In this document: positions 4,363-51,970 of the stretch, in pieces
Layout: each line of letters opens with the position of its first letter
Position numbering within the stretch: position 1 is the first letter of the stretch
NCBI GenBank assembly: GCA_038131795.1
Contig: JAYPQE010000003.1
Span: 1,446,048-1,510,047, forward strand
Length of the DNA: 64,000 nt
Direction: 5' to 3'
DNA from: Candidatus Eutrophobius brisbanensis
GTDB taxonomy: Bacteria > Pseudomonadota > Gammaproteobacteria > Eutrophobiales > Eutrophobiaceae
Notes under the pieces: generated by a model
What the model was told of the DNA's origin: nothing
Database searches by the model: none
The model's input: the letters and a program-made list of their open reading frames with translations, nothing else
Made by a program: the position numbers and the translations under genes

Positions 4363-5607
4363 CTATGCAGCTTCTAATGCTATTTCTTGGCCTGTTGGAT
4401 CTATATGCGAATAGATTAGCTTGTATAATGCCGTATACAATTGCTTCTGACCCGCAAAGCCTGCCTGTGACGCCATCCAGGGATTGTCTTCCCTCTTCTC
4501 CCAATCTATTAGTTCAAGGGGTTTCATTTTCTTATGCATAGCCTTGTCGATATTAATATCATAGTCTTGATGAGCCTCCAGTGCGCTTGTGACAATATCC
4601 CTACCCAACCTTGACAAAGAAGCAACGCCCACCAATTCTTTCAAGCGATATTTAATTTCCACTTCCTCTTCTTCACCGGTATCCGGGTCTACTTCAATTC
4701 TTGTTTTACCGTTCCATGCATCTGGAGAAAACTCAGAGATTAACTTCCAAAATGGTTTTGCAAAATCCTCTAGCGGATTCATACTCAACGATTCAATCCT
4801 TTCAAGAACCTCATTTGTAAACATATTTGAAACAGAACGCCTTAAACCTTCATAGGTAACTGCATAGTTAGGATTCCTGGCGCCTGTCATGTTTACGCTT
4901 TCAAACCATACGGAATTTTTGTCTCTTACAAGGCCAAATGCTATCTCTCGAATCTTCTGAGAATGAGATTTATCAGAAGTTTCAGTAATATCACCTTTCG
5001 TGACTTCAATTAACGCTTTCGGCAGCTTTCTCTGAGTGCTGTTAATGACATTAAATATTTCTGCTTCATCCTCAATGTTAAGTCTGAAAAAAAACTCAAT
5101 AGGCACAACGGGGTCAAAATCATCATAGTGTTGACGTGCCCACAATAAACCTCCCCTTCTATGTTGACCATCAATAACAGACATTACAGCCCCTCCCCAC
5201 TTCTTTTTAATAGCTTTGTATTCCTTATCCTGAAATAACCCTACGAATTCGCTAATGTCTGCATCAGACTTTAGCCTAACCGAGATTAGCAAAGGAGGAA
5301 TATTGGCTTTGTGGTCATAGTAGTATCTACCGATCTGAGGAAACCGCTTCTCATCAGGATTCCTTTGATAACCATGATTTCTTGGGGCAGGTGAATCAGG
5401 ATCATTAGAATCATATGTGCTAATAAAAAGCTCTTTTAAATCATAGGCTTCCAAGCAACTACTTGCTTGACGGAATGGTGATGTCCACGTCACCTTATTT
5501 GGTACTGGCAAAATATCTATATTATTCATGGGCTTATCTCCTAAATTATAATTAGTAACAATGTGCATGCTTGCGATAAGTTTGCTTAACGTTTTGTACA
5601 ATGTCAA
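4363..5607 (-). CDS. DGQHR-domain protein (DndB-like, ParB/Srx nuclease-like superfamily)
   Basis: Contains the literal motif VIDGQHRRGG. Its length (414 aa) is typical for DndB-like DGQHR proteins. It lies inside the tRNA-Arg-bounded AT-rich islet, and no dndACDE or ssp genes are nearby. Confidence 0.7.
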   Translation of the reverse strand: MTLYKTLSKLIASMHIVTNYNLGDKPMNNIDILPVPNKVTWTSPFRQASSCLEAYDLKELFISTYDSNDPDSPAPRNHGYQRNPDEKRFPQIGRYYYDHKANIPPLLISVRLKSDADISEFVGLFQDKEYKAIKKKWGGAVMSVIDGQHRRGGLLWARQHYDDFDPVVPIEFFFRLNIEDEAEIFNVINSTQRKLPKALIEVTKGDITETSDKSHSQKIREIAFGLVRDKNSVWFESVNMTGARNPNYAVTYEGLRRSVSNMFTNEVLERIESLSMNPLEDFAKPFWKLISEFSPDAWNGKTRIEVDPDTGEEEEVEIKYRLKELVGVASLSRLGRDIVTSALEAHQDYDINIDKAMHKKMKPLELIDWEKREDNPWMASQAGFAGQKQLYTALYKLIYSHIDPTGQEIALEAA

Positions 5608-5883: not shown

Positions 5884-5960
5884 TGGCGCGCCCGGAGAGA
5901 TTCGAACTCCCGACCCCCTAGTTCGTAGCCAGGTACTCTATCCAACTGAGCTACGGGCGC
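5884..5960 (-). tRNA. tRNA-Arg (anticodon ACG)
   Basis: Reverse complement: GCGCCCGTAGCTCAGTTGGATAGAGTACCTGGCTACGAACTAGGGGGTCGGGAGTTCGAATCTCTCCGGGCGCGCCA. It folds as a cloverleaf with a GGTTCGAATC T-loop and an encoded CCA. The anticodon loop reads CT-ACG-AA. Confidence 0.9.
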
Positions 5961-6060
5961 GTATCTGGTAATGCAGAGGGGGAATTCTAGCATTGTTATT
6001 CGATTGATTCACTACGTCATATTCCATTAATTATGTGCCTGCGGCACGATAAATTGATTA

Positions 6061-6129
6061 GATTCTGGCTTTCGCCAGAATGATGAGTTTATTTTTACAA
6101 TGAGTTTCCCGCTTTCGCGGGAATGACGG
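6061..6129. repeat. Two adjacent small palindromic repeat units (GATTCTGGCTTTCGCCAGAATGA and TTCCCGCTTTCGCGGGAATGAC)
   Basis: Inverted repeats ttctggc/gccagaa and tcccgc/gcgggaa with a gaaagc-type loop, flanked by the gaatgac motif. The same family recurs at 12742, 13186, 13267, 13378 and 15182. Confidence 0.6.
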
Positions 6130-6155
6130 TGGGGGCGTGGAATGACAAGAAACTG

Positions 6156-7094
6156 TTAAATCGACTGCATGAATTCCAGCATATGCCGACGTTCTGTCTG
6201 ATCCGGGAGTCTGCCATACCCTGCCCAGGCATTGTCCAGCATGTGTCCTGCATTACTGGTAGCGGGGATGGCGCAGGTGATGTCTGGATTACCCAGAATC
6301 CATTTCAGAGTAAATTGCGCCCAGCTATCGCAATCAAAATCTTTGGCCCATTCCGGTAATGTCTTCCCCCGCACACGCCTGAAATAACCACCATTACCAA
6401 AGGGACGGTTGGTGACGATGGCGGCCCCCTTGTCCCTGGCTAGTGGGATGAGTAATTCATCTGCCCGGGGTTCTAAAATGGAGTAGTTAATCTGCATAAA
6501 GTCTATACCACTGGCACTTCTAAGGAATGCTTCCATTTCGTCAAAATTTCGATAGCTGGATATGGTAACGCCTATGTATCGCACCTTCCCTGCCGCCTTC
6601 CATTCCTGCAGGTTTTGCCACTGGGTATCAAGGTCATTCAGGTTATGAACATAAATAAGATCCAGCGGTGCCTTTACCATGACCCTGGCGGATTCTAGCA
6701 TCTGATCTATACCTGCCTGTTTGGTATTAAACAACACACGCCTCAAGCTGATCTTGGTGGCAATGAATAGTTGCTGCTGAATATTCATTTCAGAAAAAAG
6801 TTTGCCGAGTACCGATTCTGAATTGCCGTAGGTCGGGGCGGTATCCACCATATTAGCTCCATTATCGAGCAGGATATTTAATACCGCTTTGAGATCATCC
6901 AGATTTTCAGAAGTATTTCGTTCGAACTCATCGGAGGTACCTAGGCCTATCACCGGAATAGATTCACCGCTGGAGGGAATTTCTCTATGCATCATGGTCT
7001 GCTGTGCAATAGATTTATGGGCTGTTGCAAGGGACATGGCGCTTCCTGCGGAGACTTGTAGAAACTGACGCCTGTTTAAACCTGATATCACCAT
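6156..7094 (-). CDS. Aldo/keto reductase with a Tat (twin-arginine) signal peptide
   Basis: N-terminal NRRQFLQVSAGSAMSLATA Tat motif, then an AKR (beta/alpha)8 fold with blocks such as GANMVDTAPTYGNSE and IGVTISSYR. Confidence 0.85.
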   Translation of the reverse strand: MVISGLNRRQFLQVSAGSAMSLATAHKSIAQQTMMHREIPSSGESIPVIGLGTSDEFERNTSENLDDLKAVLNILLDNGANMVDTAPTYGNSESVLGKLFSEMNIQQQLFIATKISLRRVLFNTKQAGIDQMLESARVMVKAPLDLIYVHNLNDLDTQWQNLQEWKAAGKVRYIGVTISSYRNFDEMEAFLRSASGIDFMQINYSILEPRADELLIPLARDKGAAIVTNRPFGNGGYFRRVRGKTLPEWAKDFDCDSWAQFTLKWILGNPDITCAIPATSNAGHMLDNAWAGYGRLPDQTERRHMLEFMQSI

Positions 7095-7261
7095 TAATCA
7101 CTCCTGATGTTAGTTTTATGGATATGTTTGCTATTTATACAATTAAATCATGTCAAAACCGGATTCAATTTGTCCATGTTCAATATTGTAAATATCATGA
7201 ATCTCACGAAAAGTGTAAAAATTGCGGGTAAAATATCAAAAAACTTTATCGATGGTGTTAG

Positions 7262-7945
7262 ATGATTGAATTAAAAGACCTGGGTATGTCCTACACCCTG
7301 GAATCAGGGACATTAAATGTCCTCAACAGTGTTGAGGTATTTATTGGTGATGGCGAGACCGTCGCCATAGTTGGCCCCTCAGGTTCTGGAAAGACCACAT
7401 TATTATTATTACTGGCAGGGCTGGAGTTACCTCAGCAGGGCGATATCAAGCTGGATGGGATCAGTTTGAGTGAACTGTCTTCCGATGAACTGGCCGATGT
7501 TCGCCGGGACAACCTGGGGATCATCTTTCAGTCATTTCACCTGGTCCCCAGCCTGACGGCTTTGGGCAATGTGACCTTACCCCTGGAGATCGCAGGCAAG
7601 GAAAATGCAAAACAACGGGCCAGTGAGTTACTTGAAAAAGTTGGTCTGGCTGAGCGCATGGACCATTACCCATCACAGTTGTCTGGTGGAGAGCAACAAC
7701 GCGTCGCCATTGCCCGTGCACTGGTGCATGCACCAAAGATGGTTCTGGCCGATGAACCTACCGGTAACCTTGATATAAAAACCGGTGCAAAAATCATCGA
7801 ACTTCTGTTTAATCTGAATGCAGATGCCAGCTCCACTCTGGTACTAGTGACCCATGATGAGGCCATTGCCAGGCGCTGCCAGCGGGTGCTCAGGCTCCAT
7901 GAGGGCAAATTGATTGAGGATGAATCCCATGCCCTTTCTAATTAA
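7262..7945 (+). CDS. ABC transporter ATP-binding protein (LolD/YbbA-like)
   Basis: Walker A GPSGSGKTT, signature LSGGEQQRVAIARAL, Walker B LADEPTGNLD. It overlaps the downstream permease gene by 32 nt. Confidence 0.9.
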   Translation: MIELKDLGMSYTLESGTLNVLNSVEVFIGDGETVAIVGPSGSGKTTLLLLLAGLELPQQGDIKLDGISLSELSSDELADVRRDNLGIIFQSFHLVPSLTALGNVTLPLEIAGKENAKQRASELLEKVGLAERMDHYPSQLSGGEQQRVAIARALVHAPKMVLADEPTGNLDIKTGAKIIELLFNLNADASSTLVLVTHDEAIARRCQRVLRLHEGKLIEDESHALSN

Positions 7946-10445
7946 CCTTGCCTGGCGGGACCTGAAATCCAGCGGCCGGTCTCTGTGGATCTTCTGTGCC
8001 TGCCTGGTATTGGGGGTAACCCTGGTATCGGCTTCCAGTGGTCTGTATCAACTCATTAACATAGGTCTACTTGCCGACACCCGTGCCTATATGGGGGGCG
8101 ATGTGGAAGTGGATTCCAAGCAACCCTTACCCGAATATGTAATCGACTGGATGAACCAGAATGGTGACGTCTCCATGGTCACTGAAGTGGACACCATGCT
8201 GGGTACCGATACCGGTTTCTTACGAGTGGAGCTGCAGAGTATGGACGAGCTGTACCCATTATATGGGGAGCTGGTCCTGGATCCTGCAAAACCCCTGCAG
8301 GAGATCACGGCCTTTGCAGATGGCTACTGGGGCGTCGCCATAGACCCTGTCCTGGCAGACCGGTTGGAGCTCGGGCTCGGTGACAGTGTATATGTAGGTG
8401 CATTAGAGATGAAGGTGCGGGCAATGGTGCTTAACCAGCCGGACCGTAATCTCAGTGCTGACTGGCGGGGCACACCGGTATTATTGAGTGAGACTGCATT
8501 ACAGGAATCAGAACTCATCCAGCCGGGCAGCAGAATTGATTATGACTATCACGTCAGGACAGACATGAATGCCTATACCTGGCAGGCCATGTTTTATGAT
8601 CAATACCCCTATGAAATCTGGGAAGTTCGTACATTCTATGACCGTAGCCGCAGGATCTCCGAGCGCCTGGGACAGATCGCATCGGGTCTTTTGATCATTG
8701 GTTTTAGTACCCTGTTTATCGGTGGCCTGGGGGTATTTAACAGTATCCAGACCTATCTGCAGGGCAAGCTGAAAACCATCGCTACCTTGAGGTCATTGGG
8801 GCTGCGAAATCGTCGCCTGGCCATTGTTTATCTGTTACAGGTGGGAATACTCAGTGGAGGTGCAAGTCTGTTTGGTGTTTTTCTTGGTGGTGGCCTGTCA
8901 TTAATCGGCGCAAAGGTGGTGGCTACCCAGATACCGGTGGCCATGACGGTATCGAGCTTGATCATTCCTAACCTTATTGCCCTGTTCTTTGGACTGTCTA
9001 CTGCGTACACCTTTGCCTTACCGGCAATCGGTCGCGCCCTGTCTGTCAAACCGGCGACCCTGTTCCGGGGCAGCGCGGAGACAGATAAAGGCACACCTTA
9101 TATGTGGCGAATCGCTACTATGACCTGTGGAATTTCTATCGTGTTGCTTGTCATTATCGCCCTTCCCGATCCCCTGTTTGGCCTGGGCTTTGTTTCAGTG
9201 GTGGGATTGTTGCTGTTATTACTGGATATGGTCGTCAAATTTATCCGCAATACCGCCAGGAAACTGGACCAATATCCGCTGGTAAACAATAAATTTGTGT
9301 TAAGGCTGGCCATCGCCAACCTGCACCGACCCGGTGCCCCGCTGAGGATTTCATTGTTATCACTGGGTTCTGCTTTGACCCTGCTGGTAGCATGTACCCT
9401 GGTGGTCACGTCCCTGGTCAGGACCATCAACGAAACTATCCCTGCGGAGTCCCCTGCCCTGGTGCTGTATGACGCCTCCAACGATCAGGTGGACGCGGTG
9501 GTCGCTGCCATAGAAGAATCGTCCAGTACCCGCCGGGTGGATACCACACCGCTGGTTCGTTCACGAATCTCAGCAGTTAATGGTATGGGTCTTGCGGAAC
9601 GTTATGACCTAAGTGAAGAACAGTTTCGGGATGCCTCCCAGGATGAATACAAACTGAGTTATTCATCCAATAATATCGATAATGTCACCCTGGTGGACGG
9701 TGCGTGGTGGGAAGGTGACATCACCGGGTTGCCGAAGATGGCCATGGAAGACCGCGAGGCGGGCCAACTGGACCTGAAGGTGGGGGACGTGATTACCTTT
9801 GACATAGAAGGTCGTACTCTTGATGCTGAGATCGCTGCTATCTTCAGTCAAAAGGGTGTGCAGACCAAGTTCTGGTTTGAAGGTATTCTGTCCAATGGCG
9901 CCCTGGACAGTTTCATCAACCGCCATGTGGGTGCGGCGTATATGGATGATAACGAGGCCATTGCCGCCCAGCAAAGGATTGCGAGAGTTGCACCTAATGT
10001 AATTTCTGTGCGCACCGCCTCCCTGCTGGCATCCGCCCGGAACATACTGGGCAAGGCCACGGCAGGCCTGACCGTGGTTGCCGCCGTCAGTCTGAGTGCC
10101 AGCCTCCTGGTATTGATAAGCGTCATGGCAGCCGGGCGAACGAGACAGATCTATGACGCCACGGTGTTATATTCTCTTGGGACCCGCATGTCGGCAATCA
10201 AGAAGAGCCTGCACATGGAATATATCCTGCTGGCAATTGTGACTTCCCTGTTTGCAGTGTTACTGGGTGCCGCCATTGCCCTGCCCTTATTACACATTCG
10301 GCTAAAACTCCCGTCAGAAGACCTGCTCTGGGTGGGCCTCCTGGTTGCGGTATCTGTCAGTGGAATTTCCCTCAGCCTGGGATCGAAATATTTATTGAAA
10401 AGATTGCAGGTTAAACCTGCCGTCCTGTTACGTGGCGGAAACTGA
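7914..10445 (+). CDS. ABC transporter permease with duplicated FtsX domains (YbbP-like)
   Basis: 843-aa protein with two FtsX-type four-helix transmembrane blocks and large periplasmic loops. It is translationally coupled to the ATPase. Confidence 0.85.
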   Translation: MRMNPMPFLINLAWRDLKSSGRSLWIFCACLVLGVTLVSASSGLYQLINIGLLADTRAYMGGDVEVDSKQPLPEYVIDWMNQNGDVSMVTEVDTMLGTDTGFLRVELQSMDELYPLYGELVLDPAKPLQEITAFADGYWGVAIDPVLADRLELGLGDSVYVGALEMKVRAMVLNQPDRNLSADWRGTPVLLSETALQESELIQPGSRIDYDYHVRTDMNAYTWQAMFYDQYPYEIWEVRTFYDRSRRISERLGQIASGLLIIGFSTLFIGGLGVFNSIQTYLQGKLKTIATLRSLGLRNRRLAIVYLLQVGILSGGASLFGVFLGGGLSLIGAKVVATQIPVAMTVSSLIIPNLIALFFGLSTAYTFALPAIGRALSVKPATLFRGSAETDKGTPYMWRIATMTCGISIVLLVIIALPDPLFGLGFVSVVGLLLLLLDMVVKFIRNTARKLDQYPLVNNKFVLRLAIANLHRPGAPLRISLLSLGSALTLLVACTLVVTSLVRTINETIPAESPALVLYDASNDQVDAVVAAIEESSSTRRVDTTPLVRSRISAVNGMGLAERYDLSEEQFRDASQDEYKLSYSSNNIDNVTLVDGAWWEGDITGLPKMAMEDREAGQLDLKVGDVITFDIEGRTLDAEIAAIFSQKGVQTKFWFEGILSNGALDSFINRHVGAAYMDDNEAIAAQQRIARVAPNVISVRTASLLASARNILGKATAGLTVVAAVSLSASLLVLISVMAAGRTRQIYDATVLYSLGTRMSAIKKSLHMEYILLAIVTSLFAVLLGAAIALPLLHIRLKLPSEDLLWVGLLVAVSVSGISLSLGSKYLLKRLQVKPAVLLRGGN

Positions 10446-10456
10446 TTATTTAGTAA

Positions 10457-10485
10457 AAGGGGGCAAACTTATGTCTGTCCCCCTT
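10457..10485. repeat. Imperfect palindrome GGGGGCAAACTTATGTCTGTCCCCC (a terminator-like stem-loop that belongs to a repeat family with 13422-13445)
   Basis: Stem ggggg...ccccc with one mismatch and no T-tract. It lies 10 bp after the permease stop. A near-identical perfect palindrome sits at 13422-13445. Confidence 0.4.
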
Positions 10486-10560
10486 GTCCCAGATCATGGC
10501 GGTTCAGACTGAGAAATGCTTTAATTCAGCCAATTAAATATAGAACTTACGGAGTGACTT

Positions 10561-11193
10561 ATGAAAATTCTTATAAACTCGATTCTACTTACATTTATTG
10601 GTTTGTCCCTGTCATGTGCCCAGACACAGAAGCAAAATGTACACGAGGCCCATCACGCCAGTCTCGATGCCCATCTAACCCATATTCAACAGATCAAAGA
10701 CCCTGCAGAACGTAAAAGGATGTTACGTATGCATATACAGATGATGAAGGAACAGATGGAATCCATGGCATCAATGGGACATGGCGGAATGGGCGGTGGC
10801 ATGGACCATGGCGGTGGCGGTATGGGCGGTGGTATGGGCGGCATGGACCACGGTGAAGGTGGTATGGGTGGATGTAACATGTGTAGCGGTGGTATGGATG
10901 GTATGAACATGGGAGGTGATGGCCCAAGTGGCGGCATGGGAGGTATGGGTCAGGGTAGCAGTGCCCCTGTCACCCCTCCCCATGGAGACAGGGGAGAATG
11001 CTCAAATTGCCATAGTGATGGCCGGGGCCAGGCTTCAGGTAATATGAGCGGTGGCATGGGCGGCATGGACCACGGCGGTGGCGGTATGGGTGGTGGCATG
11101 GGCGGTATGATGCAACACCATAATATGATGGTAAACATGATGAAACAGATGATCAGTGTCCAGGAGTTACTACTGGATATGGTAGATGATTAG
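10561..11193 (+). CDS. Periplasmic ZraP/CpxP/Spy-family-like protein with Gly-Met-His-rich metal-binding repeats
   Basis: Signal peptide, then an N-terminal helical region with LTHIQQ- and MxxM-type motifs. The tail carries GGMGGGMDHGGGGMGGGMGGMDHGEGGMGG repeated twice, plus CNMCSGG and CSNCH. This resembles the GMGMGYGGCGGGGHMGMGHW tail of ZraP. Confidence 0.45.
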   Translation: MKILINSILLTFIGLSLSCAQTQKQNVHEAHHASLDAHLTHIQQIKDPAERKRMLRMHIQMMKEQMESMASMGHGGMGGGMDHGGGGMGGGMGGMDHGEGGMGGCNMCSGGMDGMNMGGDGPSGGMGGMGQGSSAPVTPPHGDRGECSNCHSDGRGQASGNMSGGMGGMDHGGGGMGGGMGGMMQHHNMMVNMMKQMISVQELLLDMVDD

Positions 11194-11249
11194 TCTGTCC
11201 AGATAACCGGGCCACCCTCTACTCAGGAGAGGCCACAAGCAGTACATTA

Positions 11250-11278
11250 ATGTGCGCCTACGGCGCACATATTTTTTA
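11250..11278 (+). terminator. Rho-independent terminator
   Basis: Perfect hairpin ATGTGCGCC-tac-GGCGCACAT followed by TTTTTT, 57 bp after the stop of the Gly/Met-rich protein gene. Confidence 0.7.
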
Positions 11279-11486
11279 TTGGGCCCTGATTTGAAGTGCA
11301 TGCCCATCGTTTTAGTAACAGGGTGACGGGTTTTGCTTTTACTGGAATAAAGTGTAGAAGAGACTTGCCAAAAAATCATAATCGACATTTTAGCCCTTAC
11401 TCTTCACTCGTCACACCTCACTCCTAACTTATCACCTACTCATGTACAATACGCTCATTAGATGAAGTTAACCCAAGGACAACCCA

Positions 11487-12728
11487 TTGACCAACGGACC
11501 TGACGAGCGCACTGATCGCGCATTTAAATACCCAAATTTTAGAAATTTTGTAGTTGCAAAGTTCTGTACGATCTTTGCGGTACAGATGCAAAGTGTCGCC
11601 ATTGGCTGGCAGGTCTATGAAATTACCGGAGACCCCCTGGACCTTGGTTTAATCGGTCTCGCGCAGTTTCTACCTTTTGTGATTTTGATTCTCCCTGCAG
11701 GACAGGTGGCCGATAGATTAAACCGACGATTGATACTGGGTTTTTGTTATGCAACTGAGGCCATTTGTGCCGCGTTATTACTTGCATTGACCTTTATTGG
11801 TATTACCACCGTCTGGCCGGTACTTGCGGTGCTAGTATTGTTCGGCTCGGCCCGTGCATTTTCCCAGCCTGCCTCACAGGCCATAACCCCAAACCTGGTT
11901 CCCGCATCAGCGTTCCCAAATGCTATTGCGCTGAATTCGTCTTCTGGACATGTTGCAAGAATAGCCGGACCTGCGGCAGGTGGAATGTTATATATCCTGG
12001 GACCTAATGTCGTCTATTCCAGTGTTGCATTCATGCTCTGCTGTTCAGTCTTCCTGATGACCAGGGTCAAACTACCGGAAATCATTCGCGCAAAAGAGCC
12101 GGCCAGCTGGCATACCGTATTTGAAGGTTTACGTTTCGTAAAATCCCGTCCCATGATCCTGGGGGCAATCTCTCTGGATTTATTTGCGGTTTTATTTGGT
12201 GGCGCGGTGGCATTATTACCTGCATATGCCAGTGACATTCTGCACACCGGGCCAGAGGGGCTGGGGATATTACGTACAGCACCAGCCATCGGTGCGGCCA
12301 TCACCGCAGCAATTCTTGCCTATAGTCCCGTTATTCGAAATGTAGGTAACTGGTTATTTGGTGGTGTGGCTGTATTTGGCGTGGCGATTATTGTTTTTGG
12401 TCTTTCTGAAACGTTTCTATTATCACTTGCTGCCCTGATTGTTATGGGTGCAGGAGACATGGTTAGTGTGTATATCCGTCATATGCTGGTACAGCTTGAA
12501 ACACCGGATGAGATCCGTGGCCGGGTCAGTGCAGTAAATGGGGTGTTCATTGGTGCTTCGAATGAATTAGGTGAGTTTGAATCCGGCGTCACCGCCGCCT
12601 GGTTTGGCCTGGTACCTGCCGTTGTCATTGGTGGTGCGGCCACCTTGATAGTGACCGGGCTGTGGATGAAATTTTTTCCGCAACTGAGCAAAATGGACAG
12701 ACTGCCGGGGCATTATAAGGACAGGTAG
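11487..12728 (+). CDS. MFS transporter (EntS/enterobactin-exporter-like)
   Basis: 12-TM MFS fold. The N-terminal region resembles the EntS family (QVADRLNRRLIL motif between TM2 and TM3). Confidence 0.75.
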   Translation: MTNGPDERTDRAFKYPNFRNFVVAKFCTIFAVQMQSVAIGWQVYEITGDPLDLGLIGLAQFLPFVILILPAGQVADRLNRRLILGFCYATEAICAALLLALTFIGITTVWPVLAVLVLFGSARAFSQPASQAITPNLVPASAFPNAIALNSSSGHVARIAGPAAGGMLYILGPNVVYSSVAFMLCCSVFLMTRVKLPEIIRAKEPASWHTVFEGLRFVKSRPMILGAISLDLFAVLFGGAVALLPAYASDILHTGPEGLGILRTAPAIGAAITAAILAYSPVIRNVGNWLFGGVAVFGVAIIVFGLSETFLLSLAALIVMGAGDMVSVYIRHMLVQLETPDEIRGRVSAVNGVFIGASNELGEFESGVTAAWFGLVPAVVIGGAATLIVTGLWMKFFPQLSKMDRLPGHYKDR

Positions 12729-12741
12729 AATATCTCTCCTT

Positions 12742-12757
12742 CGTCATTCCCGCGAAG
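12742..12757. repeat. Half unit of the palindromic repeat family (CGTCATTCCCGCGAAG)
   Basis: It matches the left arm of the unit at 6103-6129 and lies 14 bp after the MFS transporter stop. Confidence 0.4.
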
Positions 12758-12794
12758 AGTAATATTGAATTATTTATTATCCTGTAATTCCTTT

Positions 12795-12829
12795 TAAATC
12801 CTGTTAATCCTGTCTATTTTTTTCATAAA
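12795..12829. repeat. First copy of a ~26-bp direct repeat (ATCCTGTTAATCCTGTCTATTTTTTT)
   Basis: Second copy at 13309-13344 (ATCTTGTTAATCCTGTCTATTTTTTT, 25/26 identical). Together they flank phhB and a cluster of palindromic units. Confidence 0.5.
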
Positions 12830-13157
12830 CAGCATCTGTCCTGGCTGCCATAATAAAATCATTTTGGTGCAGGCCACCTATCTTGTGTGTCCACCAGGAG
12901 ACTTCCACACTGCCCCATTCTATTAGTACTGCAGGATGATGGTCTTCAGCTTCTGCCAATTCTCCCACCTGGTTGGTAAACGCCAGTGCAGTAACAAAAT
13001 TGTTAAAGATGTATTTTCGGACCAGGCGTTTAATACCGTCGACTTCGATGACATTCCACCTCGGAACTTCGGGTTTAAGGTCATTAATTTCGTCATCGGT
13101 TAATCTGGGAGCGTCCACCCGGCAGGCTTCGCAGTGTTGTGAGGTTAGATTAGACAT
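12804..13157 (-). CDS. phhB: Pterin-4a-carbinolamine dehydratase
   Basis: [12 protein letters not shown]...[23 protein letters not shown]...[10 protein letters not shown] aligns along its whole length with PhhB/PCD. I placed the start at the second ATG (13157) on the basis of that homology. The upstream ATG at 13190 lies inside a repeat unit. Confidence 0.75.
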
Positions 13158-13185
13158 TTTTGGTTCGCCATGATTTTTATTAGCC

Positions 13186-13222
13186 GTCATTCCGGAATTT
13201 GCATAGCAAGTATCCGGAATCC
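13186..13222. repeat. Palindromic repeat unit variant (GTCATTCCGGAAT...TCCGGAATCC)
   Basis: Two copies of the self-complementary ATTCCGGAAT separated by a 16-nt loop, with a GTCATTC flank. Confidence 0.5.
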
Positions 13223-13266
13223 AGTTTAATTAAAGAACGCCCATAGGGCGTATATATTAATTATTG

Positions 13267-13290
13267 GATTCTGGCTTTCGCCAGAATGAC
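13267..13290. repeat. Palindromic repeat unit (GATTCTGGCTTTCGCCAGAATGAC)
   Basis: Identical to the unit at 6061-6084 except for the last base. Confidence 0.6.
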
Positions 13291-13308
13291 GTTATTTTTC
13301 TTTTTTAA

Positions 13309-13344
13309 AATCCTGTCAATCTTGTTAATCCTGTCTATTTTTTT
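13309..13344. repeat. Second copy of the ~26-bp direct repeat
   Basis: See 12795-12829. Confidence 0.5.
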
Positions 13345-13377
13345 ATGTTTGCCCTTCGGGCAATTTTTGTTTACTGG

Positions 13378-13400
13378 ATACTGGCATTCGTCAGTATGAC
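13378..13400. repeat. Degenerate palindromic repeat unit (ATACTGGCATTCGTCAGTATGAC)
   Basis: Same architecture (stem actggc/gtcagt, loop attc, GAATGAC-like flank) as the other units. Confidence 0.4.
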
Positions 13401-13421
13401 GGTAACAACCTATAAGGGGAC

Positions 13422-13445
13422 AGACTTAAGTCTGTCCCCTATACA
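13422..13445. repeat. Perfect 24-bp palindrome GGGGACAGACTTAAGTCTGTCCCC
   Basis: It lies immediately after the PQQ-dehydrogenase stop and has no T-tract. It is related to the stem-loop at 10457-10485. Confidence 0.5.
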
Positions 13446-15140
13446 TTATTCAGGCAACGCAAACACCATCAACATACTGCTGCCAAACTGAACATTCAGT
13501 TCCGGATACATGGTGGCAAAGTGGCGGGTACCGGCAGAACCACCGCCTATGGCAACGGCCACATACTGCTTGCCATTGGCTTCATAACTGATGGGATAAC
13601 CGGTAATGGCAGACCCCAGGCCAATCTCCCAGAGTTCCTCTCCGGATTCGGCATCCACGGCACGAAAATAACGGTGCAGATCACCGTAAAACACCAGGTT
13701 ACCGCCTGTTGCCAGCACCGATCCCAACGCAGCCCGTTGGTCCAGGTTCCAAAGCAGATTCCCGGTATTTGCCGATATAGCCGACAGCCTGCCCACCTGT
13801 TCATTGGTGCCTTGCATGAAATGCAGACCACCATAATCCAGACCGGAACGGCTTTGTTCTAACGGGACAACCTTGAATTCTGAACAGGAACTGGAGATTG
13901 GGCTATACACAACCTGGGTCTTTGGACTATAGGCGTTAGTCTGAAATAATTTCCCGCCTCGCATACCGGGACAGACCAGGTGAACATCCCCTACCTGCCT
14001 GGGAATAATGGCCTCATTGGGTGTAATTGCACCGGTCTCAGGATCAATATTGGAATATAGATTCTGGTATTCCACCAGTTGCTTGTTCCACAGGTGTTCA
14101 CCAGTCTCGCGGTCAAATGCCCAGAGGATGCCGGGCTTACCCAGAAGATAAATCACCTTGCGCATGGTGCCGCCGATCATGACATCGGCCAGGATGGGGT
14201 TGTCCTGGTGGTCCATGTCGTAATTGTCCCGTGGCTGCATCTGGTAAAACCACCGAATCTTTCCGGTCTCTGCTTCCAGTGCGAGGACAGAGTTGGTGTA
14301 AAGCAGATCACCGTCCCCTGTGCCTTTGAGAATACCCGGATAGGGATAGGGACTGGCAGTAGACCAGTAAACCAGTTTCAAATCCGGATCATAACTGCCG
14401 GATAACCAGAATGAGGCCTTCCTTCTACCTTCATAAGGTACCCCACCCCAGCTATTGAAGTGTTCTGGCGGATCATCGGGACCAGCGACGGAGGAACGAC
14501 GCCATAATTCCTGACCGGTATTGGCATCATGGGCAATGAGGGCACAGGCTTTGGATGTTCCCACACCGCAGGTCTGGCCGGCAAATATAATCCCATCGCC
14601 CACAATGGGTGGCGATGAATAATTGACCCGATCATCTGGATCCCCGGTCTGGATCTCCCAGACCATCTCCCCTGTTTTTGCATCCAGGGCAACGAGAAAG
14701 GCATCATCTGTAGTGAATAAAATCTTTTCCTGGTAGATGGCCAACCCACGGGTGGTACCATTCATACCCCTGGGCAGGCGGCGCTGGTATTCCCAAATCA
14801 AATTTCCATTACTGGCGTCCAGGGCCTGGACCTTACCACCAGCATGGGAAAGAAACATGATACCGTTATAAACGATTGGCTCCTGCTCGGTTTCACCATC
14901 ATTAAGATTCCATGCCCACGCCAACTGCAGGTTTTTAACATTGTCAGCATTGATCTGCTCCAGCGGACTATATCCATTGGCATTATGGTTTCCGCGCCAG
15001 CGTAACCAGTTGGCAGGATCGGGATTATTAATGGCCGCATCATTGACCGGCGTAAAGTCCTGTAACTGCGCGAAACTGATCTGAGAAAAAAAAGTTAATA
15101 TTGCAAAAACCAGAAGTGTGCCTCTTCGAATTAAAGTCAT
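13446..15140 (-). CDS. PQQ-dependent dehydrogenase (quinoprotein alcohol/sugar dehydrogenase family), periplasmic
   Basis: Signal peptide, then W-rich eight-bladed beta-propeller repeats typical of PQQ enzymes (LQLAWAWNLNDGE, GNLIWEY, GEMVWEIQTGD, GQELWRR, GKIRWFYQ, GEHLWNKQ, GNLLWNL, GEELWEIGLG). The adjacent-Cys pair of MxaF/ExaA is not visible. Confidence 0.7.
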   Translation of the reverse strand: MTLIRRGTLLVFAILTFFSQISFAQLQDFTPVNDAAINNPDPANWLRWRGNHNANGYSPLEQINADNVKNLQLAWAWNLNDGETEQEPIVYNGIMFLSHAGGKVQALDASNGNLIWEYQRRLPRGMNGTTRGLAIYQEKILFTTDDAFLVALDAKTGEMVWEIQTGDPDDRVNYSSPPIVGDGIIFAGQTCGVGTSKACALIAHDANTGQELWRRSSVAGPDDPPEHFNSWGGVPYEGRRKASFWLSGSYDPDLKLVYWSTASPYPYPGILKGTGDGDLLYTNSVLALEAETGKIRWFYQMQPRDNYDMDHQDNPILADVMIGGTMRKVIYLLGKPGILWAFDRETGEHLWNKQLVEYQNLYSNIDPETGAITPNEAIIPRQVGDVHLVCPGMRGGKLFQTNAYSPKTQVVYSPISSSCSEFKVVPLEQSRSGLDYGGLHFMQGTNEQVGRLSAISANTGNLLWNLDQRAALGSVLATGGNLVFYGDLHRYFRAVDAESGEELWEIGLGSAITGYPISYEANGKQYVAVAIGGGSAGTRHFATMYPELNVQFGSSMLMVFALPE

Positions 15141-15181
15141 TCCTGCTCCTCCACTATTTTAAAGTATTATTATTTTGACTA

Positions 15182-15205
15182 GATTCTGACTTTCGCCAGA
15201 ATGAC
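15182..15205. repeat. Palindromic repeat unit (GATTCTGACTTTCGCCAGAATGAC)
   Basis: One mismatch from the units at 6061 and 13267. It sits between the cytochrome c gene and the PQQ dehydrogenase gene. Confidence 0.55.
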
Positions 15206-15248
15206 GACGAAGTTTTTATTCTTGTTCTATAGTCTTAAGATCGCCGTA

Positions 15249-15538: not shown

Positions 15539-17137
15539 TTATTGAGGCTGAGCGGTGGCATCACCGTAATCGATGCTGATATCCCGACCAAAAAAGTTAG
15601 AATAGGCATCAGGAGTGTTCATTTCATCACGGGAAATTACTGTCGCGCCTAGCTTGACAAGTAATTCGGCTGTGTCTTCATGTACACCATATGCGCCCAC
15701 ATTATTGAAAGAGGGGGCAATACCCATAGACATACTCCACGCAGTCTCACCATTGGTATTTCTGGCATCCACCTCGGCACCGTGATCGACGAGATACTGA
15801 ACAACATTGGTGGTCCCGGTAAACGCGGCTTTGTGTAATGCAGTTTCACCATCTTCATTGACCTCGTTAACATCAACTCCCTGGGCCAGAATGGCCTTGA
15901 CAGCTTCCAGGGCCCGCGCCCTTTTTGCAGGGGAGGTATTGTCCTCCTGGTTCATACCGGTACAGGATGACCGGGCAGCCACCATTAATGGGGTATTGCC
16001 ATTTTTGGTGGTGATGGTCGCGTCTGCCTCGTATTTACTCAACATTTGTAGTAATTCTGCATCAGCGGAAACGGCGGCCAGGAAATAAGGTGTCGCACCC
16101 ACCATATTACTGACACTTTCACAGGAACTTCTAATGGCCGGTCCAATTAAATAACTCTTCTCAATCTGTGCATTGGGATCGGCACCGGCGTCCAACAGGG
16201 CCTTGACCAATTTAGGCTGGTTGCTTGGGCGAACCCGGTAGGAAGGATCATAGGTAATGCCATGCATGTACGACAGACCGTTCTGATGGGCATGATGCAG
16301 GGCCGTTACTCCATTCTCATCTTTGGATTCATGATCGGCACCGGACTTAAGAAGAAAAATTGCCAGATCTTCGTGACCGCTGGCAGTGGCGATTACCAGC
16401 GGGTTTCCGTATTCAGCTGTTGCTTCATTGATATTGGCACCGGCATCAAGTAACAAGCTTGCGGTTTCAATATCACCGGCACGGGCAGCATACATCATTG
16501 CAGTAAATCCACCGGGCGAGGGTTTCCATTCACATATACGACAGGTATTGGGAACTCGTTCCTCTGACGGTAAGGTTTTTGGAGAAATATCAGCACCGTG
16601 CTCCAATAACAACCGGGTGATTTCAGCGTAACCACCTGCAGCCGCCCACATTAGCGGTGTCTGCCCCATTTTGTTTTCAGCTACATTCGGATTGGCACCG
16701 GCTTTCAATAACGCCGCCACAGCATCGGTGGTCCCGGTACGAACACAATCCATAAGCAAGGTTTCACCTGACCATTTTTCGGCATTGGCATCGGCACCGG
16801 CATCCAGCAAAATCTTCACCACTTCACTGTTGCGGTTGGTGCAGGCCAGGGATGCAGGCGTTACACCATACACGTTCTCCGCATCCGGGTCTGCGCCTTT
16901 CTTTACCAGTGCTTTAATCGTATCGATATCATTCCGATGCACAGCGTAGTGTAATGCCGTTGTGCCATCTGCTTTCTTGCTATTGACATCAAGCTTTGAT
17001 TTCAGCATTGCCTGAATAATTTCCGAATCACCTTTCTTAACGGCATTGATAAATTCCATTCCGGAATCTGCAAGTACTGTTGTAGAAATGGCTGAAAACA
17101 GAAATACTGATAATGCATTTCGTAAAGACTGGTTCAT
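15539..17137 (-). CDS. Secreted ankyrin-repeat protein (third gene of module 1)
   Basis: Multiple 33-aa ANK repeats (e.g. DGTTALHYAVHRNDIDTIKALVKKGADPD). I placed the start at the ATG at 17137, which begins a signal peptide (MNQSLRNALSVFLFSAISTTVLA) and is preceded by the Shine-Dalgarno sequence GGGAGA. The ORF track extends to 17188. It is paralogous to 30033-31514 and 35450-36931. Confidence 0.8.
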   Translation of the reverse strand: MNQSLRNALSVFLFSAISTTVLADSGMEFINAVKKGDSEIIQAMLKSKLDVNSKKADGTTALHYAVHRNDIDTIKALVKKGADPDAENVYGVTPASLACTNRNSEVVKILLDAGADANAEKWSGETLLMDCVRTGTTDAVAALLKAGANPNVAENKMGQTPLMWAAAGGYAEITRLLLEHGADISPKTLPSEERVPNTCRICEWKPSPGGFTAMMYAARAGDIETASLLLDAGANINEATAEYGNPLVIATASGHEDLAIFLLKSGADHESKDENGVTALHHAHQNGLSYMHGITYDPSYRVRPSNQPKLVKALLDAGADPNAQIEKSYLIGPAIRSSCESVSNMVGATPYFLAAVSADAELLQMLSKYEADATITTKNGNTPLMVAARSSCTGMNQEDNTSPAKRARALEAVKAILAQGVDVNEVNEDGETALHKAAFTGTTNVVQYLVDHGAEVDARNTNGETAWSMSMGIAPSFNNVGAYGVHEDTAELLVKLGATVISRDEMNTPDAYSNFFGRDISIDYGDATAQPQ

Positions 17138-17168
17138 AAGGTCTCCCTGCTCTGTCTCTCGTAATTGT

Positions 17169-18506
17169 TTATGATACGGACAAGGCATTCAACGTGCCTG
17201 TACTGTCACCAAAGTTCTCGATTTCCAGACCGAGCTTATCTAACAAGGTCAGGTAAAGATTGCTGATTGGTGTGTCATCCGTATAGCGGATATGTTTACC
17301 ACCTTTCAATTGACCTGATCCGCCGCCAAAGAGAATACATGGCAGGTCTTGCAACAGATGATCATTACCATCACTCATTGAACATGCATACATGAGCATC
17401 ATATTATCCAGCAGGTTTCCTTCGATATCAGGGGTTGAGGCCAGTTTATCGAGGTAATGGACCATTAACTCTGAGTGATAAAGGTTAATCTTGTACAGTT
17501 TCTCCAGGCTGATCTCATTGCCCTGGTGGTGTGACAGAGAATGGTGAACGTCTGGCACGCCAATCTCAGGATAGGTGCGGTTACTCTGCTCCGGTCCCGT
17601 CATCAAGGTAATCACCCGGGTCATGTCCGTTTGATAGGCCATAACATTGAGATCAAACATCAATTTCAGGTGCTCGGCAAAATCTTCCGGGATTCCGGCC
17701 GGTGGTGATTCCAGTGACAGGCCCTGGCCCGTCTGTTGCTCGGCCAGTTCGATTCGATGTTCGATATCACGCATGCCGTCCATATATTCTGTCAGTCTCA
17801 GCTTGTCTTCTGGACTGACCTGTTTCATCAGGTCTTTCGCTGCCTCACTGACTGAATCCAGGATGCTCTGCTCTTTCTTGATCCGTTCCAGTCTCATGGC
17901 AGGATTGGTGCTGTCGCCAAAAAGGCGCTCGAAGACAGCACGTGGACGGTTTTCGATCGGCAGTGGCTGGGTGGGTGTCTTCCAGGAAAGGGTACTGATA
18001 AAGGCGCAGCTCCAGCCCTTCTCACATTGACCCACGGCATCGCTGCTGTGCAGGCCCAGTTCCAGTGACGCCAGCTGGGTCTTTTTACCCAGTTCCTGTG
18101 CAGCAATCTGGTCGATTGACGTTCCTACCACGCCCTCCCGTTTGGGATGAACACCCGTGAGGAATACCGCACCGGCACGTTCGTGGGGTGCCGATTCACC
18201 TTCACCAGGTTTGGCATAGCCCTCCATATTGGCCATACCACTTAGGACGGTCATTCTGTCCTTGTACGCCGCCAATGGCTGCATGATGGGTGTCAGTTCA
18301 TAGTTCGTACCTGTTTCCGTGGGTGTCCATTTAGTCATGTTCATGCCATTCGGTGCATAAACAATGGACAGCCTTCTTGGTATCTCTGCCCGATCTTTGA
18401 CAGATGCCAATGCAGGAAACATGGCATCCAGGACCGGCAAGGCGATGCTTGCACCCGCGCCTTTTAAAAATGTCCTTCTGGGGATAGATTTCTTAAATAT
18501 CAACAC
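17169..18506 (-). CDS. DUF1552 (HXXSHH) family protein with a Tat signal (second gene of module 1)
   Basis: Tat motif SIPRRTFLKGAGASIALPVLDA and the HXXSHH motif (DVHHSLSHH). GTG start, preceded by GAGGAGGG. It overlaps the upstream gene by 14 nt. Confidence 0.8.
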   Translation of the reverse strand: MLIFKKSIPRRTFLKGAGASIALPVLDAMFPALASVKDRAEIPRRLSIVYAPNGMNMTKWTPTETGTNYELTPIMQPLAAYKDRMTVLSGMANMEGYAKPGEGESAPHERAGAVFLTGVHPKREGVVGTSIDQIAAQELGKKTQLASLELGLHSSDAVGQCEKGWSCAFISTLSWKTPTQPLPIENRPRAVFERLFGDSTNPAMRLERIKKEQSILDSVSEAAKDLMKQVSPEDKLRLTEYMDGMRDIEHRIELAEQQTGQGLSLESPPAGIPEDFAEHLKLMFDLNVMAYQTDMTRVITLMTGPEQSNRTYPEIGVPDVHHSLSHHQGNEISLEKLYKINLYHSELMVHYLDKLASTPDIEGNLLDNMMLMYACSMSDGNDHLLQDLPCILFGGGSGQLKGGKHIRYTDDTPISNLYLTLLDKLGLEIENFGDSTGTLNALSVS

Positions 18507-21100: not shown

Positions 21101-22861
21101 TTAATCCGGTCTAACCATCAGATTGATGGGATTGGATATACCGCCCTCCGGTGGCGGGTTATAGGCATGGATTTCAATTCCCCGGAATCCCACAATATTA
21201 AACTCCTGAAAGGGACCCGGTGACCGGTAGGGATCCGGTGTCGCCTTCGCAAATAGACCGGTAGGTAGGTCAAACTCTACCCGTCTTGGACTTATAAATT
21301 CCGTCTTAACTGAGATCCCATTCACCCTCACCAGGGTTGTCATCTGAAAGCCGCTACCCTCCAGGGCAATACGCCGATCTTCTCCTCCCGCCACCACATA
21401 GGAAGGGAGTACAGAACTGATGACAGGGGCAAAGGTGGAACCGGCGATTGACCGTGGGGGCTTTGTGAATGTGTAATATTCTGGATGGTAACCCAGCTCA
21501 ACCCATTCACCATTTTTCATCACACTCGATACTGATCTGGAATGATAGATATCCACCAGGGGATTTTTGTCCAAAACCACCAGATCGGCAAACTTCCCTG
21601 GCTCAATAGAACCTACATTTGCTGCCCCCCGTTTCCCGTCAATGCCTTCCAGTTGCTCCGCAGACCAGCGGGTAGCAGATTTGATGGCCTGCATGGGAGT
21701 TAATCCTGTCTCCACCAGCATACGCATTTCCTGGTGCAGCCCCAGACCCGGGACACCGGCAGTAATGGCATCAGTCCCGGCCTGGACTTTACCGCCTGCT
21801 GCCATCCAGCGGCCCATAAATTCCTTGATATTTTCAAAACCTTTCTCAAATTCAAGCCGGTCTGCTTGAGGTAATTTATTTACCATGGGCAGGTTTCCGT
21901 AACGTTTTGAAAAATTCTTGATTTGCCGGTGCTTGGCAAACAGACTGAATTTAATATTATCTGGAAAATAAACAAGATCTGGGTCACGCAGGGTCAGATA
22001 GTCATCTATTTCGCGTTGCGTGGCATCACGACTCATCCCGCCCCATTCGTAGACCAGGGTAGGATTTAAATACTTATCCTGCGCTACGGCATCCTCAATG
22101 ATCTTATCGATATCATCCCAGCGTTCTGACATGAATGTGGCCCAGGTTAGATGCTCCCCACCCTGAAAGGCAGCGAGTTCTTGATCGGGCATGACTGCCT
22201 GGGTAAACCCCCAGATATGCTCAATAATATCGTGACCATCCCGGGTGCTATTGGGGACGTTTTCAGCATGACCAAAGACCATAAAACCATGCCGCTGAAC
22301 TTCGCGGGCAGCCAGGGCATAAGCCTCACTGATCTGCTCATTGTGGGTGGGAAAATGGGCGATGTCCGGTTCGTTCTCAAGCCACTGGTCTATGATCTGG
22401 CGCATCTCCCGTTGCGTGGTATCAGCATTAAAGGGTGGACGATTGCCACTATGAAACAGTCTTGGCAGACCATGTGAACTTTGACTTTCAGTACGCATGG
22501 ATTTTTCAAGATTTGTCAGGGCAATGACAGAGGTTACACCATGATTAACATATAGCTCACCCATCCAGTCCAACCAATGGACGTGAGAGTCTATCAGGCC
22601 AGGGATAATATATTTTCCTTCCAGGTCAATCCGTTCCAGATTACCTTCTGCGGATTCACCCGGGGGCAGGATTTCCTTTATCAGGTTATCTTCAATCAGG
22701 ATCGAATAACCTCTTAATGGTGAGTCTGATACGCCATCTATAATGGTCGCCCCTTCAAGGAGTAACCTTGACGTGTTCTCCTGTGCCGATACTGGTGTGA
22801 CGAATAAAATAAAGATAAGTAATGTATGTATTAACTGAAAAGGACTGCCAAACTTTTTCAT
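21101..22861 (-). CDS. Secreted amidohydrolase-family metallo-hydrolase with a C-terminal Ig-like domain
   Basis: Signal peptide, an IDSHVHW metal-binding motif, and a C-terminal beta-rich domain (IPT/TIG-like). Confidence 0.7.
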   Translation of the reverse strand: MKKFGSPFQLIHTLLIFILFVTPVSAQENTSRLLLEGATIIDGVSDSPLRGYSILIEDNLIKEILPPGESAEGNLERIDLEGKYIIPGLIDSHVHWLDWMGELYVNHGVTSVIALTNLEKSMRTESQSSHGLPRLFHSGNRPPFNADTTQREMRQIIDQWLENEPDIAHFPTHNEQISEAYALAAREVQRHGFMVFGHAENVPNSTRDGHDIIEHIWGFTQAVMPDQELAAFQGGEHLTWATFMSERWDDIDKIIEDAVAQDKYLNPTLVYEWGGMSRDATQREIDDYLTLRDPDLVYFPDNIKFSLFAKHRQIKNFSKRYGNLPMVNKLPQADRLEFEKGFENIKEFMGRWMAAGGKVQAGTDAITAGVPGLGLHQEMRMLVETGLTPMQAIKSATRWSAEQLEGIDGKRGAANVGSIEPGKFADLVVLDKNPLVDIYHSRSVSSVMKNGEWVELGYHPEYYTFTKPPRSIAGSTFAPVISSVLPSYVVAGGEDRRIALEGSGFQMTTLVRVNGISVKTEFISPRRVEFDLPTGLFAKATPDPYRSPGPFQEFNIVGFRGIEIHAYNPPPEGGISNPINLMVRPD

Positions 22862-29444: not shown

Positions 29445-29507
29445 TGGCCCGAACGATATGGCCTGCTGCCTGGTGTCCGAATTCCAGTTCCTTATTTCTC
29501 AACATAG

Positions 29508-31514: not shown

Positions 31515-31522
31515 AATTCCTT

Positions 31523-36931: not shown

Positions 36932-36934
36932 AGG

Positions 36935-51716: not shown

Positions 51717-51940
51717 AATTAATCCCCCTCGAATATTTCAATAAACTTTAGCACAAGATGCTTACAGCGACACAAGATAGTAAGGAATAAATATGTACAA
51801 TCAAACGAAATACAAATTACATTTATCATGATGGAAAGAGCGGATTAGAATTGCACCATCAATTGCGTGCGTCCAAGTCTGCTCCCGGCAGATTTGTCGA
51901 ACCGAAGGGCCCTCATCAAACCTATGCACTCAGCAGATAT

Positions 51941-51970
51941 AAAAAAGGGGACCGTTGGTCCCCTTTTTTA
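51941..51970. terminator. Bidirectional rho-independent terminator
   Basis: AAAAAA-GGGGACC-gtt-GGTCCCC-TTTTTT. It lies immediately downstream of tRNA-Ser on the minus strand. Confidence 0.65.

Follow-up and report, generated by a model that had tools for sequence, protein, structure and literature searches.

Hairpin repeats with a CGTC tag in a Candidatus Eutrophobius brisbanensis chromosome: members of the dRS3/NTS/SRM family and their putative link to Ssn nucleases

In the gammaproteobacterium Candidatus Eutrophobius brisbanensis, a 64-kb stretch of DNA (GenBank assembly GCA_038131795.1, contig JAYPQE010000003.1, positions 1,446,048 to 1,510,047; hereafter "the window") contains a small set of short, CGTC-tagged hairpin repeats, which we call units. 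As judged from their sequence and modelled structure, these units are repetitive extragenic palindromic (REP) elements of the CGTC-1 class, i.e., members of the family described under the names dRS3, NTS and SRM (Ssn-related motifs). The window repeats are, thus, an ordinary new occurrence of an already described and very widespread family. We consider it likely that a cognate Ssn nuclease, a small GIY-YIG enzyme that would be encoded elsewhere in the genome, recognises such hairpins when they are present as single-stranded DNA (ssDNA).

The units, numbered U1, U2 and U4 to U7 and read on the sense strand, comprise four clear and two diverged copies (U4, U6), which are accompanied by two 5' half units; every one of them is intergenic, and all are confined to the region from 6 to 15.2 kb of the window (Table 1). 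The seven units that had been listed in an earlier note on this DNA, made from the letters alone, were all recovered at or within a few bases of where it had placed them. The unit is an asymmetric, oriented structure, in which an unpaired YGTC tag is followed by an 8-bp stem starting with an A-T and a T-A pair, a GAAA loop, and a C(C/T)A tail. The symmetric architecture proposed before, with GTCATTC at one end and GAATGAC at the other, has to be abandoned, since the tag is found at one end only and GAATGAC is the tag as it appears on the other strand. A tag on both sides of a structure occurs only in the inverted dimer at 13185-13292, where U4 and U5 flank a 37-nt spacer with a stem-loop of its own (13237-13251) and both tags lie outside ("HH"); the remaining units are single or in tandem.

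That these units form a family beyond chance, as had been suspected, is supported by two approaches. A degenerate 20-mer pattern, allowing up to three mismatches, had five matches in the window versus 0.08 expected from shuffled sequences. Independently, a covariance model (R1), built from 96 copies in foreign genomes and containing no window sequence, recovered the four good units with E values of 4.6e-9 to 2.6e-6 and the diverged U4 and U6 with 0.02 and 0.096. Over the 64 kb, R1 gave no other credible match; the next one, at 22496-22530, lies inside an open reading frame (ORF) and was taken as chance. As ssDNA, five of the six full units are predicted to form the expected 7-8-bp hairpin (-4.3 to -9.1 kcal/mol, z -3.1 to -5.9 versus shuffles), so that the secondary-structure prediction suggested in the earlier note came out as anticipated for these five; for U6, the best fold is a different one. 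In U6, both partners of one stem pair are exchanged, giving A-T for T-A; the published NTSvar has this change, too. An Rfam scan of the region from 5.5 to 15.8 kb, with E values up to 1, returned no family matching the units. Three occurrences of GTCATTCC (at 15136, 31868 and 58315) all lie within coding sequence and were likewise put down to chance, and a loose structural scan (GTCAT with up to one mismatch, a 7-of-8 stem, a loop of 3-15 nt; 27 matches versus a shuffle mean of 16) was too noisy and was replaced by the covariance model.

Table 1. Repeat features of the window (positions count from its first letter; E values are those of covariance model R1; folds are predicted).
Feature	Position	Strand	Sequence (sense strand)	R1 E value	Fold (kcal/mol; z)	Remarks
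U1	6057-6086	-	UCAUCATTCTGGCGAAAGCCAGAATCTAAT / TCATCATTCTGGCGAAAGCCAGAATCTAAT	2.6e-6	-7.8; z=-5.9	Perfect hairpin; tag decayed (CATC, not CGTC)
U2	6100-6129	-	CCGTCATTCCCGCGAAAGCGGGAAACTCAT	4.6e-9	-8.6	Canonical CCCGC stem type; outermost A-T pair broken
5' remnant	6134-6147	-	TGTCATTCCACGCC			Begins 9 nt past the stop codon of the aldo-keto reductase (AKR) gene; weak evidence alone
5' half unit	12742-12757	+	CGTCATTCCCGCGAAG		No unit-like fold	13 nt past the stop codon of the MFS transporter gene; has CGTC
U4	13185-13225	+	CGTCATTCCGGAAT-[TTGCATAGCAAGT]-ATCCGGAATCCAG	0.02 (13186-13225)	-9.1; z=-4.7	Long-loop variant; left arm of dimer
U5	13263-13292	-	ACGTCATTCTGGCGAAAGCCAGAATCCAAT	9.9e-9	-7.8	Right arm of dimer
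U6	13373-13402	-	CCGTCATACTGACGAATGCCAGTATCCAGT	0.096	Other small hairpin; z about -2	Diverged; one pair mismatched, loop GAAT; support weak
U7	15178-15207	-	UCGTCATTCTGGCGAAAGTCAGAATCTAGT / TCGTCATTCTGGCGAAAGTCAGAATCTAGT	8e-8	-4.3	G-T wobble in stem; between cytochrome c gene and PQQ dehydrogenase gene
HH heterodimer	13185-13292				-26.9; z=-6.7	Just upstream of phhB; whole folds as one
9-mer array	12776-12823	+	ATCCTGTNA 9-mers, ending in CTATTTTTTT			Overlaps last codons of phhB
9-mer array, second copy	13308-13344	+	ATCCTGTNA			One 9-mer longer than the first

Two bodies of literature describe repeats of this kind. CGTC-tagged REPs were defined by Di Nocera, De Gregorio and Rocco 2013, BMC Genomics 14:522 (PMC3733652), to whose work a literature search for dRS3 leads and whose CGTC-1 class includes the Neisseria dRS3. 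Members of this class have an unpaired terminal CGTC tag at one end only (TGTC or CCTC being tolerated), an 8-bp stem with A and T in the first two pairs, a 4-nt loop and a CCA tail; they are mostly found as HH dimers with spacers of 20-100 bp and are located near the 3' ends of ORFs (PMC3733652). A search for the motif GTCATTCCCGCG leads to Chenal et al. 2025, Nat Commun 16:2388 (PMC11893778), in which the 28-nt NTS CGTCATTCCCGCGMAVGCGGGAATCYRG is shown to contain dRS3, related motifs (SRM) are found across phyla, and ssnA genes are typically flanked by the motif; this paper mentions neither the work of Di Nocera and co-workers nor dimers.

Set against the CGTC-1 definition, the window units conform on every point, with exceptions in single units. 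The CGTC tag is present in U2, U4, U5, U6, U7 and the half unit at 12742, U1 having CATC instead. Stem ATTCTGGC/GCCAGAAT together with the GAAA loop occurs in U1, U5 and U7; as exceptions, U2 and U6 form seven of the eight pairs, the latter with a GAAT loop, and U4 has a loop of 13-18 nt. The tail is CCA in U4, U5 and U6 and CTA in U1 and U7, while ACT in U2 is a misfit. There is one HH heterodimer, whose 37-nt structured spacer is in the published range. The units start 9-44 nt past the stop codons of the AKR, MFS, cytochrome c and pyrroloquinoline quinone (PQQ) dehydrogenase genes, which bears out the earlier remark that several lie immediately after stop codons and agrees with the published 3'-end placement of CGTC REPs. 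The bases critical for SsnA are largely kept as well: a C follows the stem in all six full units, and GTC precedes it in five (ATC in U1).

The same unit is found in a wide range of other genomes. A scan of species-representative genomes with TTCNNNCTTTCGNNNGAATGAC gave at least 120 stretches, with 144 matches among those listed. This pattern fixes 16 bases, conservation of which is, therefore, by construction; the independent information resides in the three free stem positions and in the flanks. Among the matches listed, the three free positions are fully complementary in 124 of 144 (chance, 1 in 64), and the free flanks are conserved, with Y before GTCAT and TCCAG after the stem, resulting in the consensus YGTCATTCC.GCGAAAGC.GGAATCCAG. 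We count it as support for the family identity that this flank consensus equals the published NTS. Across 96 distinct copies, 95.7% of the stem cells are paired and 38 cells are changed on both sides; the covariation score was reached by none of 500 shuffles, and slid registers collapse. The resemblance to REPs and to Neisseria dRS3/NIME that had been pointed out for one unit is, thus, well founded, considering the classification of dRS3 as CGTC-1 (PMC3733652) and the recovery of the NTS/SRM consensus (PMC11893778) from many phyla. Hosts among the matches listed include Alpha-, Beta-, Gamma- and Deltaproteobacteria, Dehalococcoidia, Bacteroidota, Planctomycetota, Verrucomicrobiota, metagenome-assembled genomes of the candidate phyla radiation, and Neisseria lactamica.

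Two further observations concern these copies. A near-identical 28-nt consensus unit is present on contigs L071, L022, L026 and L076, binned as Nanoarchaeota and as candidate phyla radiation (Paceibacteria, Parcubacteria, Nomurabacteria), which could reflect real breadth, horizontal transfer or mis-binning. On other contigs, the window's exact unit forms regular tandem arrays with a period of 105-117 bp (L189:44-417, L196:1720-1968, L198:4831-5063, L163:2097-2333), of which there are none in the window.

A second scan, of metagenomes with the window's own unit variant, gave at least 120 loci, so that both scans together cover about 240. The window's organism is the source of none of the 120 metagenome loci listed, among which only L193 has the window dimer (77% identity), including the same long-loop U4 variant. 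Within the loci listed from both scans, pairs of neighbouring units are predominantly arranged with the tags outside (133, versus 38 with the tags inside and 29 direct), with a spacer mode of about 19-25 nt. Eleven loci carry an ORF of 91-96 amino acids (aa) that matches Pfam GIY-YIG; nine of these ORFs are preceded by a sense unit, 11-33 nt upstream, and ten are followed by an antisense unit, 3-66 nt downstream. Many of the flanking units are the exact window unit GTCATTCTGGCGAAAGCCAGAATC, and the 24-mer of U5 flanks GIY-YIG genes identically in L203, L139, L192 and other loci. Taken together, the dominance of tags-outside pairs and the layout of the flanked GIY-YIG genes make the dimer look like an ssn cassette without its gene. 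The earlier note had named, as an outcome that would refute it, that the units belong to the terminal repeat of a known insertion sequence (IS); they are not the ends of any catalogued IS, but in other organisms they flank putative ssn genes like terminal inverted repeats.

The best-documented mechanism for such repeats, which was absent from the options considered in the earlier note, is recognition of the ssDNA hairpin by an Ssn enzyme. The 94-aa GIY-YIG protein SsnA requires ssDNA and the sense strand to bind the NTS, shows no binding to the RNA form, and makes its cut a few nucleotides upstream; the C after the palindrome is critical for binding and the three bases before the palindrome for cleavage (PMC11893778). 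In N. meningitidis, the SsnA/NTS pair lowers transformation with NTS-bearing DNA, and an SsnA homologue is found in 81% of the genomes with more than 200 SRMs (PMC11893778). By analogy, the sense strand of a window unit would form its hairpin whenever the DNA becomes single-stranded, i.e., during replication, repair or uptake of transforming DNA, and a cognate Ssn of about 94 aa with a single GIY-YIG domain would bind it and nick a few nucleotides 5' of the tag. Following the Neisseria model, incoming homologous ssDNA would be shortened and recombination around the flanked genes lowered. The Ssn enzyme would also be a candidate agent for spreading the repeats, both as singles and as tags-outside dimers mimicking a gene-less ssn cassette. 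We infer from this analogy that the organism has a matching Ssn, that this enzyme cuts the units, and that a biological effect of the kind seen in Neisseria results.

Several points weigh against this interpretation. No GIY-YIG gene was found in the 64 kb by a GIY-YIG regular expression, tblastn with three seeds or ORF scans; a cognate nuclease of this organism would have to lie elsewhere in its genome. The strict published strings have no match in the window, neither dRS3 (exact), nor NTS with up to one mismatch, nor the SRM regular expression HGTCWYN(0-2)YYVSBRHN(0-5)WNVSBRGN(0-2)RNCYNB with zero mismatches. For dRS3 and NTS, the nearest approach is U2 (ATTCCCGCGAAAGCGGGAAA), which is one mismatch off the exact dRS3 ATTCCC-N8-GGGAAT and is, with three mismatches, the best NTS match. 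Each good unit breaks the SRM expression at one position, which is located in the tail or the tag or is part of a wobble pair, and with one substitution allowed the expression matches five true units together with nine noise matches. Recognition by SsnA relies on sequence as well as structure (PMC11893778), so that the CTGGC stem would need its own matching Ssn. The GIY-YIG genes of the 11 loci were classed by Pfam match, size, single-domain layout and flanking pattern, features that do not directly show cd10448/SsnA homology. Finally, the literature presents mobilisation by Ssn as a hypothesis and not as a demonstrated activity.

The history of the units could be followed in syntenic contigs, which were obtained via homologues of the PQQ dehydrogenase. 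Two contigs of the same species (L251 and L252; GCA_038121685.1 and GCA_038140555.1; 97-98% DNA identity) have the same units in the stretch covered. The more distant L248 (75-82% DNA identity) carries a dimer in the same spacer between the PQQ dehydrogenase gene and phhB, made up of different unit types, as well as a U1 orthologue, the tag of which is likewise off CGTC (CACC), and the GTCATTC of the remnant at 6134-6147 is kept at the same place; U2 is absent at the orthologous place and U7 at its spacer, the latter also in L244. Contigs L244-L247 (73-75% DNA identity) have no units. The HH dimer architecture is common to the window, L193 and the orthologous spacer of L248. The spacer between the PQQ dehydrogenase gene and phhB, 288 nt long in the window, measures 34 nt in L245, where the ends of phhB and the MFS gene overlap; the half unit at 12742-12757 is located within a block of about 100 nt that is absent from L245. 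MFS and phhB are convergent genes, and this insertion between them (12700-12830) changed the C-termini of both proteins compared with L245: the MFS protein is 10 residues shorter, and the end of PhhB differs from ...NAILGN, with its last codons and stop coming from the 9-mer repeat. The unit-free, compact spacers of the relatives identify the units as lineage-specific insertions, some old and some recent, among which U2 was apparently inserted directly 5' of an older U1. No clear target-site duplications were seen at the U2 and U7 junctions, where the sequences are too diverged for the junctions to be defined.

A further step would be to regard tags-outside dimers such as the one at 13185-13292 as non-autonomous mobile elements derived from ssn cassettes, moved in trans by Ssn via a single-stranded intermediate. 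We put this forward tentatively, as a possibility that we rather doubt; the filled and empty sites are compatible with it and do not prove it. If it were true, Ssn/SRM would be the GIY-YIG counterpart of RAYT/REPIN and the "missing transposase" for the CGTC repeats, which were said to "apparently lack a dedicated transposase" (PMC3733652), and the filled and empty orthologous spacers as well as the placement of U2 5' of U1 would be traces of Ssn activity.

Among the other explanations, the one faring best is that the units are orphan relics of CGTC/SRM repeats, i.e., decaying passengers in a genome that has lost its matching Ssn or never had one. The window without an ssn gene would fit, as would the damaged copies—the U1 tag, which is off CGTC in L248, too, the U6 mismatch, the U7 wobble and the two half units—and the fact that SsnA homologues occur in 81%, not all, of the SRM-rich genomes. 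However, U2, U5 and U7 are intact, the absence of U2 and U7 from the related species L248 argues for recent gain, and the divergence of the stems is by compensated rather than random changes. Relics are, in our view, a real but distinctly less likely explanation, and recognition by a cognate Ssn is preferred.

It is less probable still that the hairpins act mainly as RNA, either terminating or attenuating transcription or stabilising the 3' end of the upstream mRNA. The distance of the units from the stop codons would suit such a role, many REPs have been argued to be transcribed, lying between unidirectional or convergent ORFs near their 3' ends (PMC3733652), and the unit at 13268-13287 scores as terminator-like on the plus strand. 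This lone call is, however, on a strand without an upstream gene, and no unit is followed by a T-run on the transcribed strand, which is why a terminator as the main role was rejected. In addition, an RNA hairpin does not need the conserved asymmetric tag and tail, and the same operon junctions in relatives have spacers of 34-67 nt without units; the RNA form is also the one that SsnA leaves unbound. Orientation relative to transcription, determined with crude ORF calling, is unbiased among the approximately 240 loci listed (58 same, 50 opposite). The earlier list of roles—transcription attenuator, mRNA stabiliser, recombination site or IS target—was generic and finds no backing in these data.

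Target or attachment sites of site-specific recombinases (IS110/IS1111-type IS, filamentous prophages), a role reported for Neisseria dRS3, are a very improbable explanation for the units. IS1111/IS110 elements insert into REPs. For dRS3 itself, use as a phage recombinase target is reported in work cited by Chenal et al. (PMC11893778). In the window, however, no unit is interrupted, and among its scanned ORFs there is no transposase, RAYT (Y1 transposase), integrase or prophage gene; moreover, such a role would account for how the sites are used, but not for how they arose or spread. Mobilisation as classical REPs/REPINs by a RAYT, an IS200/IS605-like tyrosine transposase, can practically be dismissed: the general architecture with an oriented hairpin, an unpaired tag and inverted dimers is alike, but the window units have a CGTC rather than a GTAG tag and no RAYT, CGTC repeats show no RAYT association (PMC3733652), and the gene flanked by the repeat in the loci listed is a GIY-YIG gene.

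Some practical consequences arise. Annotators may label spacers of this type as CGTC-REP/SRM units instead of unknown repeats. The strict published SRM string misses good units, so that SRM counts made with it may be underestimates. The comparison of filled and empty sites with close relatives shows a recent gain of these repeats in a lineage that is free-living and environmental. Together with the gene-flanking pattern, this recent gain is relevant to the idea that Ssn nucleases might propagate the very sites that they target.

The units also affect gene prediction at phhB. U4 is located 28 nt upstream of the true phhB start, and its CGTCAT tag, read as the reverse complement, offers an ATG that is in frame and precedes the conserved start by 11 codons (13157-13190). 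PhhB is called as 128 aa on two contigs of the species (L001, L252) and as 132 aa on L251, compared with 113 aa in relatives; the overlong call is probably an annotation artefact caused by the repeat. Start codons within the ATGACG tag should, thus, be distrusted, phhB being called 11-15 codons too long in this species.

Around phhB, the units are interleaved with the 9-mer array listed in Table 1, the 27-mer of which has two copies in the window versus zero expected. A similar array is found about 100 nt from an identical hairpin unit in the unrelated metagenome contig L240 (1511-1540), and CAGGAT repeats occupy the phhB/MFS spacer of L248 (12310-12380). The array may serve for protein binding or, as in Neisseria NIMEs, accompany the hairpin units as a second repeat.

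The region as a whole is ordinary chromosome with a G+C content of 46%, encoding tRNA-Arg, LolD/YbbP-like ABC transporter components, PhhB, PQQ dehydrogenase, RecA, AlaS and an aspartate kinase. Homologues of this AlaS with 65-67% identity bear the name "Gammaproteobacteria bacterium". GC skew suggests that the minus strand is leading; most genes lie on this strand, as do the sense sequences of five of the six full units, a coincidence to which we give no weight considering the few units. Some features of the window that are independent of the repeats deserve mention. The tRNA-Arg(ACG) gene (5884-5960) adjoins a gene for a DGQHR-domain protein (4363-5607), a domain linked with DNA phosphorothioation systems, and this site may be the edge of an island. 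The ORF at 10561-11193 encodes a 210-aa Gly/Met/His-rich repeat protein (GGMGGMDHGG...) without NCBIfam match, possibly a binder of copper or another metal; its counterparts in relatives have 134-218 aa. Three paralogous three-gene clusters (15539-20901, 30033-35255 and 35450-40658; 65-79% DNA identity) each encode one protein with ankyrin repeats (493-549 aa), one with an HXXSHH domain (445-459 aa) and one of about 800 aa with a PSD/PSCyt domain; relatives have at least one copy of the cluster. At 51934-51976, a perfect hairpin with a 20-bp stem and A/T-run arms (CAGATATAAAAAAGGGGACC GTT GGTCCCCTTTTTTATATCTG) abuts the end of tRNA-Ser(GCT) (51975-52065) and looks like a bidirectional terminator. 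At 28800-29909, two adjacent minus-strand ORFs of 133 and 214 aa correspond to successive segments of the NMT1/THI5 profile, which suggests a gene split by a frameshift or an internal stop.

Compared with known systems, the window units are closest to the CGTC-1 REPs, with which they share the CGTC/TGTC tag, the 8-bp stem beginning A-T, T-A, the 4-nt loop, the CCA-type tail, the HH dimer with a structured spacer, and the position near 3' gene ends. They differ in the stem core, which is CTGGC/GCCAG in three units instead of the commoner CCCGC or CCGGC, in the 13-18-nt structured loop of one unit (U4), and in the host, an uncultured gammaproteobacterium, whereas the family has been described mainly in Alphaproteobacteria. 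With the NTS/SRM system, they have in common the oriented consensus CGTCATTCC.GCGAAAGC.GGAATCCAG and the critical C and GTC, and elsewhere the identical unit flanks small GIY-YIG genes in an NTS-ssn-NTS layout; the window itself, however, has no ssn gene and does not match the strict strings. The clustering of the units and their interleaving with a second repeat, the 9-mer array, recall Neisseria dRS3/NIME, while exact dRS3 and Neisseria RS units are lacking and clusters comprise four units at most. The GTAG REP/REPIN-RAYT system, finally, is parallel in that it, too, is built on an ssDNA hairpin with a tag, probably moves in the form of inverted dimers, and has a single-copy enzyme gene with the repeats on its flanks; the tag here is CGTC rather than GTAG, and the enzyme is of the GIY-YIG type rather than an HUH tyrosine transposase.

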